From: a virus
Lineage: Duplodnaviria > Caudoviricetes
Length of the DNA: 60,892 bases
IMG/VR virus record: IMGVR_UViG_3300044820_000060
Coordinates: 1 to 60,892 of that record
Reading direction: 5' to 3' (one strand)
In this document: positions 2,417 to 23,703 of the stretch, in pieces
Position numbering within the stretch: position 1 is the stretch's first letter
Layout: every line of letters starts with the position of its first letter
Made by a program: the position numbers and the translations under genes
The notes under the pieces: generated by a model
Told to the model about the DNA's origin: nothing
The model's database searches: none
Seen by the model: the letters and a program-made list of their open reading frames with translations, nothing else

Positions 2417-3007
2417 TCATCGGCGCCGCTCCGCCAGCGATAGCGCCGTCTCAAATTTCTTCAGCCAGTCAGGTTGGATGCTCCGCCGATAGTGCCCGAG
2501 GCAATATTGCGACCGCCCGAAATTAGGGTTCCCGGGAACGCCCTTGAACTGCGCACATCCGCAAAACGTGTGCTCCCCTGCAACCGCGCCGACCGGCCAT
2601 CGGCACTCATTCGGCCCAAGATCCATAAAACGCACTCCACCTGTGCCCACCATAGACGATTCGGGCAAGGATGTGACCACCGGCGGTTTCGTGGCTGGGG
2701 CGGGCTGCTTGACGGGCGCAGTAGGTATTTCCCGTACTTGCGCCTTAGCCGTAACATGGGCTACGGCGGCGGAGTTCCGTTGGCGCGGCGGTACGCGCAT
2801 CGATGACGGTTTTCGGAGTTTCGACGGAGCCACCCCGGGCATTTTGCGATGGATCAGAGAGAGGATGGAATTGCGCGTGCGAACCAATTGGCCATCCGGC
2901 TTCCGTCCGAACCGTTCGGCGATGATGGCGGCGGATTCCCCGTTCATACGAAACTGGAACACGAGTTCACGCTCGGAGTCTGTCCAGGGGGTGTCCACCC
3001 TCTTCAT
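2417..3007 (-). CDS. gcrA: GcrA-family cell-cycle regulator homologue
   Basis: N-terminal WTDSERE...SAAIIA...TRNSILSLIHR; C-terminal FMDLGPNECRWPVG...FCG...YCLGH. Confidence 0.85.
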   Translation of the reverse strand: MKRVDTPWTDSERELVFQFRMNGESAAIIAERFGRKPDGQLVRTRNSILSLIHRKMPGVAPSKLRKPSSMRVPPRQRNSAAVAHVTAKAQVREIPTAPVKQPAPATKPPVVTSLPESSMVGTGGVRFMDLGPNECRWPVGAVAGEHTFCGCAQFKGVPGNPNFGRSQYCLGHYRRSIQPDWLKKFETALSLAERRR

Positions 3008-3202
3008 GGCGTGCGACCTTGTGTGCGGGGGTTGTACACACGCATGACACAAAAGCCCGATAACCACGGGTTGACAACGGTCAAGATTCAAACCACTAAC
3101 GCAAACGCATAATGCGTCAATTCGGGACAGAATCGCTACAGACTCGGGACTCCATGATAAATCTGGATACTAATAATTCACGCCCCCCCCCAATGGGGAG
3201 GG

Positions 3203-9509: not shown

Positions 9510-9880
9510 GAATAAGGCGAGCGGCGGTGAGATCCCGCCAACAGTTTCGCGGCGATGCCGCAACGAGTTTCTGGGTGGATGCGAGGCGTTAAGGTGTTGC
9601 GCTAATCTGGCTGATCTGCCGGGTTGGAAACAATTCGGGGCTGCACCCAGGAAACTAATCCCCTCCTCGGAGGGTTCGAGTAGACCGCGTAGCCGGTGTT
9701 TCCGGCGGTGAAGATGGTGGCGTCATCGTGTGGGTAGGGCGGCACAGCCCGAGAGCAGAGCGCAGATCCGGTTCGGCTTCGCGGCCAGCTTTAGCTGGGG
9801 GTCTTTCATACCCGGCCAATCTCGCAGTCAGTCACCAAAACGAAGCCGGGAATCTCCAACAGGGGTTCCCGGCTTTTCTG
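9510..9880 (+). ncRNA. Candidate large structured ncRNA
   Basis: No credible ORF; many nested stems including the long-range GTTTCTGGGTG/CACCCAGGAAAC pair; ends in a terminator; 5' boundary approximate. Confidence 0.4.
9843..9880 (+). terminator. Intrinsic terminator
   Basis: AAGCCGGGAATCTC-caaca-GGGGTTCCCGGCTT followed by a T-rich tail. Confidence 0.7.
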
Positions 9881-9899
9881 TTTCTCAATGGCGGCAAAG

Positions 9900-9935
9900 A
9901 AAAAGGCCAGCGAATCGTTGATCCGTGGCCTTTTT
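9900..9935. terminator. Bidirectional terminator-like hairpin ending the FtsK operon
   Basis: AAAAAGGCCA...TGGCCTTTTT. Confidence 0.55.
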
Positions 9936-10023
9936 GAAACGTAGGCATCAGCCGCCCACCGTGTTCCGACCTTCAGAATGTGCTATTTCCTATCTCCCAT
10001 GTCAAGTCGTTTCCCGGCTTTTC

Positions 10024-10179
10024 TTATGCCTTTCGGATGGCACCAATTACGAAGAAGGCGACGGTGAAAAGGATGGTGCTGAGTTCATGATCAACCTGCG
10101 TACGCGGCCCAAACAAGAGAGCGGGCACGTTAGCGCAGGCCATACCCAAGGCGTACATTTGCCAATCGCGGAGTGTCAT
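10024..10179 (-). CDS. Small two-helix membrane protein
   Basis: MTLRDWQMYALGMACANVPALLFG...ILFTVAFFVIGAIRKA; AGGAAGGA RBS. Confidence 0.6.
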   Translation of the reverse strand: MTLRDWQMYALGMACANVPALLFGPRTQVDHELSTILFTVAFFVIGAIRKA

Positions 10180-10213
10180 CTTAGGTTCCTTCCTGTAAAG
10201 CGTTGGTTGTCGC

Positions 10214-11407
10214 TCAGCCGACAACAACTTTCAGATCGGCGTGCTTGAGAGCGATCCCGCGATAGTGCCGCCGGCCGTTCTCCTCGATGCGATCGATCTT
10301 GTGGGTGTCCCTCATGGCGTTGCCGAAGAGAGTTAGGTTTAGGTGTCCCACCTTCTTCCCCTTGCACCATCCGATATAGGACTCATGGGCCTTCGCGCAT
10401 TGGAGCTTTTCGCCGGGTGTCTTGACTGTCCTCTCCTTAAGCCAGTCCCCCACGTCACCTGTCTCTGTGTCTGTCTTGGGTGTCCTCTTCGGAGGTGTCT
10501 TCGGAGGCGTCTTCTTCGGCGCCGGGGTGTCCTTCGGTGTCTCATGAGTGACAGGAGACGGATGAGTGACAGTTTGAGTGACAACGGGCAAGGTGTCCTT
10601 TCTCGCCAGAGAGACACCGAACAGGGCCAGGATGATCATGGGGCCGCTGAAGGCCAGGAGTTCGACGCCAAGTGCGAAGCCGATCTTGCGCCACTCCGAG
10701 ACTGTCTCGTTGGCATAGGGCGTCACGGGCGACACCACGGCCATGATGCGGATGAGCTTCGCCGCGGTCGGGTCGACGTCTTTCGGCAGGGGCCCGAGGT
10801 CCGCGAGAGCTTGCCGCGTTTTTGCGATAGCATCCTTGGTCGAGGACTCCTCGCGGGTGAGGTCTCTGTCTCGTGTGGCCTTATCGAGAGCCACCTTGGC
10901 GTCGGTAGCCTGCTTCCCGAGAGAGAGACAGTTCGGCCCTCGTCCCCTGCGACACTCGGCGTCCCGTGATGTCTCCGCGCTGCGCAAGTCAGCGGCCTTC
11001 GTCGTCACGGTCTCATCGCTGGTGACGACGTGCGCGGCGATCATCTTCTGTGCTGTCTCAAGCCTGGTGATCTCTGTCCTCAGTCCATCCGCGCGCGTCA
11101 GCTTCTCTCTGGCCGAGCCGGTGAGATACGCCTGGATCACCTCGCCACTGTCCAAGGCGTTCGCGAAGTTGAGGATAAGGAGGACAGCGCCGACCACAAA
11201 GCACGTCCCTTGGTGCAGAGGGTCCGCGAGTCTCTTTACCGCGAAAGGTAGAGCAGCCATCACCAAGACGGACATGAGGAAGAAGACAGCCACGCCGGCA
11301 TCTCTCGCATTGGAGATAGTCTCTATGTGAGGGAGGACATTGCAGAGAGCCGAAGGGGCCACGCAAGCTGTCGCGAGACCTCCAGCTATCAAGCGTTGAG
11401 AGTTCAT
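10214..11407 (-). CDS. Membrane-anchored coiled-coil protein with C-terminal D5/RFX-like winged helix (paralogue 2)
   Basis: About 3 TM helices, coiled coil with ECRRGRGPNC, TM helix, T/P-rich linker, DVGDWLKER...AHESYIGWC...FGNAM...GRRHYRGIAL. Confidence 0.8.
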   Translation of the reverse strand: MNSQRLIAGGLATACVAPSALCNVLPHIETISNARDAGVAVFFLMSVLVMAALPFAVKRLADPLHQGTCFVVGAVLLILNFANALDSGEVIQAYLTGSAREKLTRADGLRTEITRLETAQKMIAAHVVTSDETVTTKAADLRSAETSRDAECRRGRGPNCLSLGKQATDAKVALDKATRDRDLTREESSTKDAIAKTRQALADLGPLPKDVDPTAAKLIRIMAVVSPVTPYANETVSEWRKIGFALGVELLAFSGPMIILALFGVSLARKDTLPVVTQTVTHPSPVTHETPKDTPAPKKTPPKTPPKRTPKTDTETGDVGDWLKERTVKTPGEKLQCAKAHESYIGWCKGKKVGHLNLTLFGNAMRDTHKIDRIEENGRRHYRGIALKHADLKVVVG

Positions 11408-11859
11408 GGTCTCTGTCCTTTGAGAGTAGCTGTCGCGCAAGGTGTCTTGAGACTAGCTGTCCACGCTCTTTGGTTCGCAGGTATTGCGTCGGCGCAGCCG
11501 CAGGTATACCGGCGAAAAACCGGCCTAATTGGGCAAAAAGGCCAGCAAAACGTGCGTTTTTGCCGATCACGTGGGGAAATCACGTTATACCGGCGACCGC
11601 GGCCACGTGAGGTGTCTTTGTGTCGGGACGTGCTCATCGTATCGTCACCTTATGAGGGACGTTGTTCCGGTTTGAAACGCGGTCCATCCTGACGCGAGGG
11701 TGGTCTCTCATCTCCTGCTTGATGATGCTCTCGGATGCTCCCGTTACCTTCCTCACACGCATGATCAGATCCGTGGACGTCCACTCTCCTCGCAGGAGGT
11801 CGATCTGGTGTCTCACACGCTCCCTTGCGTCGGAGAGACGCTTGCCGCGACGGGGTGTC
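10304..11859 (+). repeat. Co-oriented GGTGTC(Y) motif cluster
   Basis: Exact GGTGTC at 10304, 10342, 10416, 10479, 10494, 10526, 10536, 10592, 11441, 11611, 11807, 11854; GAGTGACA three times near 10546-10583. Confidence 0.75.
11404..11637 (-). CDS. Small basic hypothetical protein
   Basis: ATGA overlaps with both neighbours; no recognisable motif. Confidence 0.35.
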   Translation of the reverse strand: MSTSRHKDTSRGRGRRYNVISPRDRQKRTFCWPFCPIRPVFRRYTCGCADAIPANQRAWTASLKTPCATATLKGQRP

Positions 11860-13529
11860 TCTGTCTCATCGCCCTCCACGTCGAAGTCCTGGTAGTCCGG
11901 CTTGCCGAGTCTCTTCAGCGCCTTCACGGCGTCCTCTACCTCTTCCTCGGAGACGTAGGCGCCATGAGCGCGGGTGAGTTTGCCTCCGGTAAGGTAGAGC
12001 ATGTCTCCCTTTCCAAGCAGGGCTTCCGCTCCGCTCTTCCCGATGATGGTTCTGGAGTCGATTTCGTTTGCCATCTGAAAGCAGACACGGAATGGGAAGT
12101 TGGCCTTAGTCACCCCGGCGAGGACGTTGACGCTTGGTCGCTGCGTGGCAAGGATGAGGTGTATCCCGGCTTTGCGCGCCGCTTGCGCAAGACGCTGGAT
12201 GATTGTCTCGATCCGATCTCGATCGGCCGGCTTCCTCATATTCGCCATAAGATCAGCAACCTCGTCGACAACGACGACGATGTAGGGAAGCCTCTCGTTA
12301 ACCTTGGCGTTGTAGCTTGCAAGTGTCTTGGCCCCGACAGCTTCCAACTTCTCGTACCGCGCATCCATCTCATCTGCGATACCCTGAAGCGTAGCAATGG
12401 CCTTGTTCGTGTCGGTGACGACTGGACATAGCAGGTGCGGGACATCCTTGTATGGCCCGAACTCAACGCGCGCCGGGTCAATCAGAGCGATCCGCAACTC
12501 TTCTGGCGGGTGCCCGAAAAGGAGGGACAGGATCAGCACATTCAGTTCTACGGATTTTCCTGATCCGGTTGTACCGGCCACCAGCATGTGAGGCATTGTC
12601 GCGAGGTCTACGATTAACGGATCTCCGTTTGTGGCCTTGCCCAAGATGAGAGCCAACACCGCTTGGCTGTTTCTGTAGGCTTCAGACTTGACCATCTCTC
12701 GAAACAGGATCATCTCGCGCTTGTCGTTGGGTAGTTCAACGCCAATCGTCTTTGGCCCGAGGTTGGGGATGATGCGTACAGACTCAGAACCCATGTTGCG
12801 AGCAACGTCATCCGCCCGCGCAACGATCGCGTCCGACTTCGTACCCTTGGCTAATTCAATCTCGTAAAGCGTGATGACAGGGCCAGTCTTGACACTCTTG
12901 ATCTCTCCTTCGAAGCCATAGTCGCCCAACGTCTCCATCAAGGCTTCAGCCTGGCGCTTGACGGCCGGGTTACTGTGCCGCACAGGCGCGGCTCCGCACT
13001 TAAGCGCGTCTTCTGGCCGCTTTGGGTCAATGAAATGGTCGTAGGGGATCTTCGGAACGATCGGGACGAAGAAGTTCAGCCGTTCGGCCCCGGGGAAGCG
13101 TCGCGCGAACAGTTCTTCAATCTTGGACGCCACGAGAACAGGCACGGGCGTCTCGAAACGCCATACAGCAATGATCGCGCCACGGTAGGGAAAGGTGACT
13201 GCCGGCGGCGTCTGAAGGAGTCCCAGAGCGTCTTGTTGGCTGAACGGTAGACGGACACAGATCGCCGATACATCGCGAATATCGTCGAAATCTGGGCGCC
13301 TGATGAGAAATGAGCGCGGACAGCCGGCGAGGCAGCGCACTTCGCGGCCAAAAGATTGCTGCTCCGAAATGAACTTGTTGGCTTCGGGCCGGTCCACATC
13401 CCCATCATAGGGGATGGTGTCAACATACCGCCGGTTCCCGTCGATTGCGACAAGGAGCCACGGAGTCTTCGGAAGCAGTCTTTGAAGCAGGATTGGCATG
13501 TCCTGCAAAATAGCGCCATTTATGGCCAT
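11634..13529 (-). CDS. FtsK/SpoIIIE-family DNA translocase with N-terminal degenerate RepB/AEP primase-like domain and no TM domain
   Basis: GPVITLYEIEL alpha domain; Walker A GTTGSGKS; Walker B YIVVVVDE; RKAGIHLILATQRP; GAEALLGKGDML; divergent helical C-terminus. Confidence 0.93.
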   Translation of the reverse strand: MAINGAILQDMPILLQRLLPKTPWLLVAIDGNRRYVDTIPYDGDVDRPEANKFISEQQSFGREVRCLAGCPRSFLIRRPDFDDIRDVSAICVRLPFSQQDALGLLQTPPAVTFPYRGAIIAVWRFETPVPVLVASKIEELFARRFPGAERLNFFVPIVPKIPYDHFIDPKRPEDALKCGAAPVRHSNPAVKRQAEALMETLGDYGFEGEIKSVKTGPVITLYEIELAKGTKSDAIVARADDVARNMGSESVRIIPNLGPKTIGVELPNDKREMILFREMVKSEAYRNSQAVLALILGKATNGDPLIVDLATMPHMLVAGTTGSGKSVELNVLILSLLFGHPPEELRIALIDPARVEFGPYKDVPHLLCPVVTDTNKAIATLQGIADEMDARYEKLEAVGAKTLASYNAKVNERLPYIVVVVDEVADLMANMRKPADRDRIETIIQRLAQAARKAGIHLILATQRPSVNVLAGVTKANFPFRVCFQMANEIDSRTIIGKSGAEALLGKGDMLYLTGGKLTRAHGAYVSEEEVEDAVKALKRLGKPDYQDFDVEGDETETPRRGKRLSDARERVRHQIDLLRGEWTSTDLIMRVRKVTGASESIIKQEMRDHPRVRMDRVSNRNNVPHKVTIR

Positions 13530-13532
13530 CGC

Positions 13533-14558
13533 CTAGATCACTCCATCCCCAATAGTCACCCCCTGATACGCATCACCAACCGAATCAAGTCCGCCATCAG
13601 ATTTCATCCGCGCTTTGAACGCAGCGAGATCCATCGGAGCGGTTTTGTTCTCTTTGCAAAAAGTGCTGTATTTTGCGTGTGCGTCGGCTATCGACACTGA
13701 CTGTTTAGGATCGGGAGAGATCTTGACGCAGCGTGCCAGCCAGATTTTGAACACTCTGGAGACATCTTGATCGTCGGCCGGCTTCGGAGGTGGTTGTGTG
13801 CCCGCCCCGGGATAGCCTGTATGCGGCTCGCGCCAGATCGCATTACCTGTCTCTGCCGAGAACGGAGAGCCATAGGCCGATAAACCATGAGCGGCGCCAA
13901 GCATCAGGACGGCGGCGGCATAGGTGAGCCACGCCCGCTGCAGGTCTTCGTCTGTTCGCGGCGCTCCTGGCCAGCGGATTTCCCATTTCGGAGCTCGTTC
14001 ATTCTCACGCTTCGCGTCGGCTAATTCGGCGGAAAGTTCTTCGCGCAGCCCGCACCGATAGCCGCGATAAATGCAATCATCGGACACGGCCCTGAGATTG
14101 GCGCGCAGCCCATCAAGTGAGCGAACGTGCCGGAAAGCCTGTGTCGGGATCGTCGGCGGGTAAAAAATCAGGAAATAGGCGATCACCGCCGACGCCGCCC
14201 ATGAAATTGCAAGGCACAGGTTGAGAAGCCGCCAGTTCGTCGCGGTCCAGTCGTCCCGGCGTTGCCGCAGGTATGGTATTCCGTGGAACAGGCCGGCCAG
14301 CGACGCCGAGACATAGGCAATGATCGAAGCCAGGATCGCCGCAACGATTGGTGTCGGCCATAGAATCCAAAGGACGCCGAAAAAGTTGAAGACAGCAATC
14401 AGCTTACCGATCGCGTTGCTGTTTCTGGAAAGCTCGGACGGCAGGCGCGTCGTTCCGACGGCCCCGCGCAACCCTTGTTCGATGTGATAGGGCAACGGCG
14501 GCGGCGAAGAATTTGTGTTCTTCGCCTGGAAGGTTACAGTTTGGAGTTCGCCGCTCAC
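13533..14558 (-). CDS. Membrane-anchored protein with C-terminal D5/RFX-like winged helix (paralogue 3)
   Basis: About 3 TM helices, DDCIYRGYRC...LSAELA, TM helix, VFKIWLARCV...AHAKYSTFCKE...FKARM...YQGV. Confidence 0.75.
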   Translation of the reverse strand: MSGELQTVTFQAKNTNSSPPPLPYHIEQGLRGAVGTTRLPSELSRNSNAIGKLIAVFNFFGVLWILWPTPIVAAILASIIAYVSASLAGLFHGIPYLRQRRDDWTATNWRLLNLCLAISWAASAVIAYFLIFYPPTIPTQAFRHVRSLDGLRANLRAVSDDCIYRGYRCGLREELSAELADAKRENERAPKWEIRWPGAPRTDEDLQRAWLTYAAAVLMLGAAHGLSAYGSPFSAETGNAIWREPHTGYPGAGTQPPPKPADDQDVSRVFKIWLARCVKISPDPKQSVSIADAHAKYSTFCKENKTAPMDLAAFKARMKSDGGLDSVGDAYQGVTIGDGVI

Positions 14559-15207: not shown

Positions 15208-15728
15208 TAGCGGTGCCTCTTACGCTGCACGGGTTTGTGAAGTCGCTTCAGGTGTGTCATGAGCGGTCGCACATCAGGCAGGACCGCTGCAGGCGCTAGG
15301 GCCGGGACAGGCTGCACGGTCTGCGGTACGGTGGTCACGTGATCAGGTGCCGGGAATTTCGGATGCCAGCGCCAATGTGCCGGCGCGAAATACCAGTACG
15401 CGCCGAGACCTATCGCCAGGACGGCCAGGATCACGCCATACGCCCGTATGTGTCCGACGCGGGTAACGACGCGCCAACTGTCCTCAAGCCACTGGATAAG
15501 CAGGATCGGAGCTTTGGCGACAGCAAAGCCGAGGACAACGCCGAGGCCGACTTGAACCGCAAGAATATCGGTGAACAGCGCGACGATCCCGACGCTCGCA
15601 TACATCACGAGAATGCAAGCGAGCGCATACAGGAATCCGACGCTGACACGGACAAAGTGGCCGAGGTCGGAGATGTCCTCGACGATCTCATTTTCAATTA
15701 CGGTGAGGATGGGCTGCGGCTTCTTCAT
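15207..15728 (-). CDS. Three-TM membrane protein with Pro-rich tail
   Basis: Hydrophobic stretches; GGAGG RBS; ATGA coupling. Confidence 0.7.
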   Translation of the reverse strand: MKKPQPILTVIENEIVEDISDLGHFVRVSVGFLYALACILVMYASVGIVALFTDILAVQVGLGVVLGFAVAKAPILLIQWLEDSWRVVTRVGHIRAYGVILAVLAIGLGAYWYFAPAHWRWHPKFPAPDHVTTVPQTVQPVPALAPAAVLPDVRPLMTHLKRLHKPVQRKRHR

Positions 15729-16345
15729 CTGGACACCTCAAGCTGACGCAGAGGCAACCGTTTATTGACGGGCGAGGCACGCGAGGGCGCTGTGCAGATC
15801 GCCCGGTGTTCGGGGCACCAGATAGAGCCCGGCGCGCGGTCGCGTCCGCAGTAGAGCAGGCTCGAAGCCTCCTCGATGTAATGGCACTGTCCGGTTCGAA
15901 GCCGCTCGAACGAGACATCAAGCGTAATATTGACAGTCCTGCCACGAAATGGTTGCGGGTTTTGCTTCGGCGCAAATGTCCGCTTTTTTGTCCGCTTCGG
16001 TTCGGTCGGATTCGCTGCGCGCTGTGCCGCCAGCCAGCGTATCCGCCCCTGGCGCACTTGCTTCTTGCGGAGTTGTGGATCTTTGTGAGCTAGTCCTAGC
16101 CTGGCAATCTTCCCGATCACGGCGTCTTCGGTGATCGGCAGAGCGTCAGGAAAAGCCACTGGATCGTTCAGGCGCGCGGCAATCGCGCTGCACGTCAATC
16201 CAAGCCCATCAGCCCACAGCGCGATAAGGAGGTCTACGCGAGGGCCGGTCCACGGGCTTATCTTGTCGTTACGGCCTGCGCCCCTTTTGGGTTTTGGTGC
16301 CGGGGGCCTCGTCGTCGGGAATTGGAGAAGATGGTGAATACTCAT
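15725..16345 (-). CDS. gcrA: Second GcrA-family homologue
   Basis: WTGPRVDLLIALWADG...SAIAARL...TEDAVIGKIARLGL; L..GQCHY...LYCG...WCPEHRAIC. Confidence 0.8.
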   Translation of the reverse strand: MSIHHLLQFPTTRPPAPKPKRGAGRNDKISPWTGPRVDLLIALWADGLGLTCSAIAARLNDPVAFPDALPITEDAVIGKIARLGLAHKDPQLRKKQVRQGRIRWLAAQRAANPTEPKRTKKRTFAPKQNPQPFRGRTVNITLDVSFERLRTGQCHYIEEASSLLYCGRDRAPGSIWCPEHRAICTAPSRASPVNKRLPLRQLEVSR

Positions 16346-23450: not shown

Positions 23451-23703
23451 AGGTCTTTTCCTTTCGGTGGTTGGTGAAACCCTCAAGGGGGACCGATCTC
23501 GAAAATAGTTAGGCGTTACAGCCCAAGCTCCGGTTGCGGTTTCGGCGCGTGATCGTAGACCTTCATCCGCCGGGTCTTATGCGGTTCGCGCCAGGCCGGT
23601 GTTCTGTGCCTGTGAGTTGGAATGTAGGACAATCGCCCATACCAGTCAAGCGCCTTTTGAAATTTTTCTTGAAAAAAAATATTGATCGTCCTAGTTTATC
23701 ACC

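Follow-up and report, generated by a model that had tools for sequence, protein, structure and literature searches.

Why should a single hexamer recur a dozen times on the same strand of a phage genome, across the end of one gene, an intergenic spacer and the gene that follows? We asked this of a 60,892-nucleotide stretch of DNA (the window), which is the complete IMG/VR virus record IMGVR_UViG_3300044820_000060, a linear tailed-phage sequence with an estimated completeness of 83% (CheckV). The word is GGTGTC, and it lies on and around two minus-strand genes, P0002, coding for a 631-residue FtsK-like ATPase (11634-13529), and downstream of it P0001/P0003, coding for a 397-residue membrane protein (10214-11407). 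A first-pass annotation had proposed that the repeats form a loading site similar either to the FtsK-orienting polar sequences (KOPS) or to the transfer locus that acts in cis (clt), and that they are read by the C-terminus of the FtsK-like protein or by a tethered winged helix. This interpretation was borne out in part: the word shows signs of being a DNA-level word and a tethered winged helix was modelled at the end of P0001, but the KOPS half found no support. The reading that we tentatively prefer, at a little short of an even chance, is that the repeats constitute a local, clt-like array on one strand, recognised by one of two adjacent winged helices and written for the most part over the coding sequence of a disordered linker.

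Eight exact copies of GGTGTC are found on the plus strand within 294 bp, at positions 10304, 10342, 10416, 10479, 10494, 10526, 10536 and 10592, with spacings of 38, 74, 63, 15, 32, 10 and 56 bp. This main cluster (10304-10597) is followed by a second, looser group on the same strand (11441-11859) with copies at 11441, 11611, 11807 and 11854, which brings the number of same-strand copies in 10304-11859 to 12. Inverted copies occur at 10613 and 10731. Our recount returned the same positions as those first described, the two inverted copies included. The array begins 225 nt before the FtsK-like gene ends and reaches 1.3 kb downstream, through three reading frames and non-coding DNA. In gene sense the word is GACACC, and all 12 copies stand on the transcribed sense strand. 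Translation agrees with the earlier remark that the copies fall in different frames (ETP/DTP/KTP, RHQ, GHL). Indeed, the word is read as GAC-ACC, or D-T, at 10592, 10526 and 10304 (KDT, KDT and RDT), as xxG-ACA-CCx, or (E/K/R)-T-P, at 10536, 10494, 10479 and 10416 and again as ETP at 11854 in the FtsK-like gene, as G-H-L at 10342 and as R-H-Q at 11807. The copies at 11854 and 11807 belong to the final 75 codons of the FtsK-like gene, and those at 11441 and 11611 are non-coding, in the 226-nt spacer, a point on which the first-pass annotation had made no remark. All eight clustered copies are inside the P0001 gene, five of them in the DNA coding for a disordered linker rich in K, T and P (residues 257-298; 10469-10594, minus strand) and three, each in a different frame, in the DNA coding for the folded, winged-helix-like C-terminal domain (10247-10465, minus strand). 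Over the whole window GGTGTC is present 40 times (32 on the plus strand, 8 on the minus strand), a count reached by 2 of 100 dinucleotide shuffles (mean 25.6).

Codon-preserving shuffling had been set beforehand as the test that could refute the enrichment, and under it the enrichment persists, with 8 copies observed against 2.5-3.0 expected overall. Permuting synonymous codons within the open reading frame (ORF) gave a mean of 2.56 (standard deviation 1.37; P 0.0006). When the protein, the codon usage and the dinucleotides were all kept, the mean was 2.49 and none of 1500 shuffles reached 8; in these same shuffles the maximum for any hexamer whatsoever was 7 per 300 nt, never 8. Among the 40 genes of at least 150 residues, the lowest shuffle P (0/300) was shared by the P0001 ORF, with 8 copies, and by the gene at 2417-3091, with 5 copies of CCGCCG, the count in the P0001 ORF being the highest. 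At the family-wise level, the probability that any gene reaches 8 was 0.052 (250 replicates) when triplet-period words such as GCGGCG were included, and 0/250 when they were left out. A naive Poisson scan likewise placed the GGTGTC cluster as the top local hexamer cluster of the window, and two copies within the 226-nt spacer have a probability of 1.2e-3 (Poisson) or 0.0074 (dinucleotide shuffles). The cluster is in excess of what the protein sequence, the codon usage and the dinucleotides demand.

The copies also have a common context. The 9-mer RGGTGTCYY (RRGACACCY in sense) fits 10 of the 12 array copies, 7 of them in the main cluster, against 1 of the 26 copies elsewhere; 10 of its 11 matches in the window are in 10303-11861, and all of these are on the plus strand. 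Both spacer copies and the copy at 10494 are identical AAGACACCT 9-mers in sense. Shuffles gave a mean of 2.68 matches and none of 100 reached 11, but the 9-mer was defined after the data had been seen and its P values are inflated. Moreover, its flanking purines are largely or partly forced by K, R and E codons. The 9-mer figures therefore overstate the case, because of both the post hoc definition and the codon-forced purines. Allowing one mismatch to the 9-mer gives 80 copies in the window, which is no enrichment over the 65.8 expected. Amino-acid repeats alone, as first argued, are not sufficient to account for the array, given the shuffles (2.5 against 8), the three frames, the two non-coding copies and the common 9-mer context. 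Altogether, frame independence, non-coding copies and a shared 9-mer point to a word at the DNA level and not to a pure amino-acid repeat.

Which protein could read such a word? Each of the two genes that carry it offers a candidate. We place the start of P0001 at the ATG at 11407, because its relatives share the N-terminal helix and an AAGGA lies upstream. From there the protein is ordered as three N-terminal membrane helices, a 152-residue helical loop containing an invariant E-C...C, a fourth membrane helix and a basic tail. In a model built on 25 sequences (mean predicted local distance difference test score, pLDDT, 85.7), residues 257-298 are disordered (pLDDT <50) and residues 304-372 take the order helix-strand-helix-helix-strand-strand (H-S-H-H-S-S) at pLDDT 92-96, so that the C-terminus is modelled as a winged-helix-like domain on a disordered basic tether. 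This domain has two weak family matches, RFX_DNA_binding at E 4.6e-4, which falls short of the Pfam cut-off, and phrog_1829 (DNA primase), in its C-terminal part, at E 4.5e-4; Atlas structural rows relate it, weakly again, to the C-termini of P4/D5-type primases (template modelling score, TM, 0.21-0.36). Pfam recognised no initiator, helicase or primase domain in P0001, PADLOC gave no match, and sequence searches of PDB with P0001 and with the FtsK-like C-terminus returned no relatives. The P0001 family counts 191 representatives at E<=1e-3, 81 of them at E<=1e-10, among metagenomic and phage proteins, and the ten relatives looked up have either the name hypothetical or none at all. P0001, a predicted membrane-tethered DNA-binding protein in an unannotated family of this size, deserves attention whatever the array turns out to be.

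The second candidate is the FtsK-like ATPase itself. P0002 contains the FtsK alpha domain (PF17854, E 5.4e-20) and the motor (PF01580, E 4.6e-55), and this core shares 47-50% identity with the FtsK proteins of Hyphomicrobiales such as Xanthobacter, Dichotomicrobium and Ancylobacter. The gamma domain PF09397 was not matched by the whole protein or by its last 92 residues at E up to 5, while all the cellular matches listed except P0066 carry it. No FtsK_4TM or other membrane segments were found in P0002; nearly all the listed cellular matches have PF13491. Neither the first 190 residues nor the last 92 match a Pfam family. The N-terminal 190 residues (12960-13529, minus strand) stand in place of the membrane part of cellular FtsK and are shared with P0006, which is the one full-length relative of P0002 (58% identical, best conserved in the C-terminal part). 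Residues 569-630, encoded at 11640-11825 (minus strand), were modelled as H-S-H-H-S-S at pLDDT 67-78, in an overall model that is poor (pLDDT 46, 2 sequences). The models thus end both proteins with an H-S-H-H-S-S domain behind a flexible linker, that of P0002 being the poor one, and the two C-terminal domains are not alike by BLASTP (E 0.49). PADLOC also proposed P0002 as a defence protein (SspH, mad8, HerA), which we rejected; these matches cover the generic FtsK/HerA ATPase core only. Directly upstream of P0002, at 13533-14558 on the minus strand, a 341-residue protein has no Pfam, PHROG or PADLOC match.

In the recognition-array reading, a 9-bp word recurs from the 3' end of the FtsK-like gene through the spacer into the linker and winged-helix part of the P0001 gene, and would act in cis as a site read by a locally encoded winged helix. 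The first candidate reader would be the C-terminal domain of the FtsK-like protein, for which the array may serve for loading or docking, in the way that clt serves Streptomyces TraB/TraA. The second would be the membrane-tethered winged helix of P0001. In either case binding might load or anchor the DNA for translocation. If the docking site is real, the locus offers a cis/trans pair open to direct test in a phage FtsK-like motor, the cis part being the 9-bp word and the trans part the two small winged helices. It would then also be an example, from a setting other than actinomycete conjugation, of a recognition array written over a disordered linker.

Besides the limits of the 9-mer and of the P0002 model, several observations weigh against this reading. 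The copies show no helical phasing and are irregularly spaced (Rayleigh R 0.08-0.11), and the array, interrupted by a gap of 849 bp, is spread over 1.56 kb. By sequence, neither a family nor a plasmid protein nor a PDB entry matches the C-terminus of P0002. Five of the eight clustered copies are in a K/T/P linker of low complexity, in which a 12-nt tandem repeat occurs. The region 10.2-12.05 kb has an unusual codon usage compared with 38 other genes (GAG 0.90 versus 0.53, AGA+AGG 0.42 versus 0.18, ACA 0.37 versus 0.21) and is rich in GAGAC/GACAC pentamers in both orientations, so that a compositional quirk could lie beneath the GGTGTC signal. The local abundance of GTCTC and GAGAC, already noticed in the first reading, was found again: the 10-12 kb bin has 16 GTCTC and 8 GAGAC, where the other 2-kb bins have about 2. 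GTSTC on the plus strand is present 31 times in 10-12 kb, compared with a rate of about 1.8 per kb outside it.

Several of these observations are the ground for a quite plausible alternative, to which we give somewhat less than an even chance, namely that the array is without function at the DNA level and arose as a by-product of a rapidly evolving disordered K/T/P linker prone to slippage and of a bias towards GAG, AAG, AGR, ACA and GAC codons, with some chance copies in addition. Slippage yields repeated words, and it is outside what any shuffle used here models. The copies at 10479 and 10494 are included in a degenerate 12-nt tandem repeat coding for P-K-T-P units (10479-10519, plus strand; Tandem Repeats Finder), and beside it the linker has three exact TGAGTGACA (V-T-Q / V-T-H units) at 10545, 10563 and 10575 (10545-10583, plus strand), as reported at first reading. 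The codon usage of P0001 and of the 3' end of the FtsK-like gene departs from that of the 38 genes in the direction that makes the word, and the length and sequence of the linker vary across the P0001 family. This by-product explanation has to face the shuffles that keep the protein, the codons and the dinucleotides (2.5 against 8). Moreover, the D-T and T-P copies alternate between two frames of the linker, which in-frame slippage would not produce, the three copies of the folded domain are in three frames, the two non-coding copies are identical, and the strand ratio of the 9-mer in the region is 10:0. If the array is nevertheless a by-product, it is a warning that codon-preserving shuffles alone cannot clear low-complexity linkers.

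Does the word persist in related DNA? A single homologous DNA was found, the 1578-bp metagenome contig L001, which is 76% identical over nt 192-1027 of the ORF and unrelated on both sides. Within the aligned part of L001, 6 of 8 copies have stayed unchanged, compared with a background of 36% for hexamers in general (P 0.03), which speaks for the array. Two points again count against a recognition array and in favour of a by-product: two linker copies were lost through amino-acid changes, one other copy being gained by a synonymous change, and synonymous sites within the motif were kept in 12 of 13 cases versus 139 of 185 outside, which is not significant (P 0.14). L001 is a mosaic (1-310 and 1118-1578 are unrelated), in which the homology to P0001 starts and stops abruptly, and its frame runs on into unrelated sequence after the L-Q-C of the winged helix. 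Other searches added no further variant. Against phages, tblastn of P0001 and P0127 returned nothing and blastn of 9800-13600 only short pieces of the FtsK core; viral contigs scanned with P0001, A1, P0002, A3 and P0125 gave nothing, nor did genome contigs scanned with A1 and A3, and the metagenome scan gave L001 only. Three other sequencing runs contained only identical 151-154-nt pieces of this stretch, and so no variants.

We then considered whether the word could serve another factor. The spacer between the FtsK-like gene and P0001 (11408-11633, 226 nt) contains two AAGACACCT in sense and two CACGTG. A pair of 15-nt direct repeats, TTGAGAGTAGCTGTC and TTGAGACTAGCTGTC, lies a short way upstream of the P0001 start, at 11420-11434 and 11447-11461, 27 nt apart, with the GGTGTC copy at 11441 between them. 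This repeat pair together with GGTGTC could be an operator-like arrangement. The spacer also has a terminator-like hairpin on the minus strand (11566-11542). An improbable but coherent explanation, in our estimation, is that the word is an operator or iteron for a different phage or host factor, in the promoter region of P0001 or at an origin, or else a GACACC signal at the RNA level. The two spacer copies alongside the direct repeats and the paired CACGTG would fit the former, as would the weak likeness of the P0001 C-terminus to P4/D5-type primases, whose C-terminal domain binds octamer iterons in P4; the presence of all 12 copies on the sense strand would fit an RNA signal. Against this, no sigma-70-like promoter was detected in 9800-12000, and the spacer has no Rfam match, with a folding z of only -2.2. 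Iterons inside the coding DNA of phage replication genes occur in the lambda ori within gene O and in P4 alpha with its ori/crr octamers (ori, origin of replication; crr, cis replication region). The present array is like these phage iteron arrays in that its words extend across the linker-coding part of a gene, the winged helix of which is weakly similar to the C-terminus of a P4-type primase. It differs in its irregular spacing and in the lack of an adjacent AT-rich region: no AT-rich unwinding stretch was found close to the array (over 9.7-12.2 kb the GC of 40-nt segments does not fall below 0.40), and no turn of the GC skew occurs at 10-12 kb.

A genome-wide role was also considered, in which GGTGTC, like KOPS, would steer the motor to a defined end or site. 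The likeness to the FtsK gamma/KOPS and SpoIIIE/SpoIIIE recognition sequence (SRS) systems resides in the alpha and motor core, 47-50% identical, and in a one-strand word beside a probable winged helix. In the window, 32 of the 40 copies are on the plus strand, and in the late region, where the genes are on the plus strand, the ratio is still 11:4. However, outside 10214-11900 the skew is 20:6, which ranks 60th among 1803 hexamers (P 0.009 uncorrected). A genome-wide KOPS-like guide is not supported, because the skew outside the cluster is unexceptional; the word is local. In addition, the 9-mer fits a single one of the 26 copies outside, and P0002 differs from FtsK by the lack of the gamma domain (by Pfam) and of the 4TM segments. 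We consider a guide of this kind close to refuted and very improbable indeed.

The remainder of the window gives the setting of these two genes. The phage looks like a temperate tailed phage: it encodes a cI-type repressor, two GcrA-like proteins, an HNH protein, a C5 methyltransferase and a terminase-like large ORF. The identity of the motor core to Hyphomicrobiales FtsK (47-50%) suggests that the host is probably alphaproteobacterial. No plasmid match was obtained with P0003 or with the FtsK-like C-terminus. The last gene of the minus-strand operon is a small hydrophobic ORF of 51 residues, from ATG 10179 (10024-10179, minus strand). Between this operon and the converging methyltransferase gene, a strong hairpin with a 15-bp stem and T runs (9842-9876) is probably a two-way terminator. 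The GcrA-like genes (PF07750) are at 2417-3091 (minus strand, E 1.6e-8) and 15725-16345 (minus strand, E 5.4e-14), and the former has a CCGCCG cluster above its synonymous shuffles (5 against a mean of 2.97). The first 44 nt of the contig are a perfect 13-bp tandem repeat, GGGGTCCACTGGG, in 3.4 copies, which may be an assembly-end artefact or a feature of the genome end. The AT-richest spot of the window (about 23654-23700, 40-nt GC 0.20) lies in the region that separates the early from the late gene block and may be a promoter or origin region.

Returning to the recognition array, we can ask what the two proteins might accomplish together. A more elaborate proposal, unlikely but worth stating, is that they form a split TraB/FtsK pump: a soluble motor with the alpha-beta core of a host FtsK, whose gamma domain was exchanged for a winged helix of its own, and an inner-membrane partner bearing a tethered winged helix, with the docking array written in the linker of that partner. 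If this were the case, the loading of phage DNA onto a membrane pump, or its anchoring there, would be specific for both sequence and direction. To our knowledge, such loading of a pump is known only from chromosome segregation and Streptomyces conjugation.

The closest known counterpart of the array is the clt locus of Streptomyces plasmids. There, clt consists of direct 8-bp repeats recognised by the FtsK-like TraB (PMC4447253, PMC4170104), and in pWTY27, pSVH1 and pJV1 direct repeats of 7-9 bp cluster around and just past the 3' end of the FtsK-like gene and are read by its product's C-terminal winged helix (PMC3583192, PMC4447253). The published loci measure about 50-175 bp (PMC3583192), against 1.56 kb here, mostly within the next gene. 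They belong to conjugative elements with rep, int and spd genes, either plasmids of mycelial actinomycetes or actinomycete integrative and conjugative elements, whereas the present array is in a tailed phage; these two differences are to be counted with the points against a clt-like array given above. The phage motor also differs in having no membrane segments, and its C-terminus has no sequence similarity to the plasmid proteins. On the other side, direct repeats of this length are indeed found at and after the 3' end of the translocase gene, in the form of 12 same-strand copies, 10 of which fit the 9-mer. The nearest parallel is pWTY27, whose clt comprises 16 bp within the 3' end of traA and the next 159 bp and contains four direct TGACACC repeats, bound by TraA in electrophoretic mobility shift assays and footprinting (PMC3583192). 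Compared as a word, strand aside, TGACACC includes the GACACC core of the phage array, and both loci straddle the end of an FtsK-like gene. We regard this resemblance as a striking parallel and not as homology.

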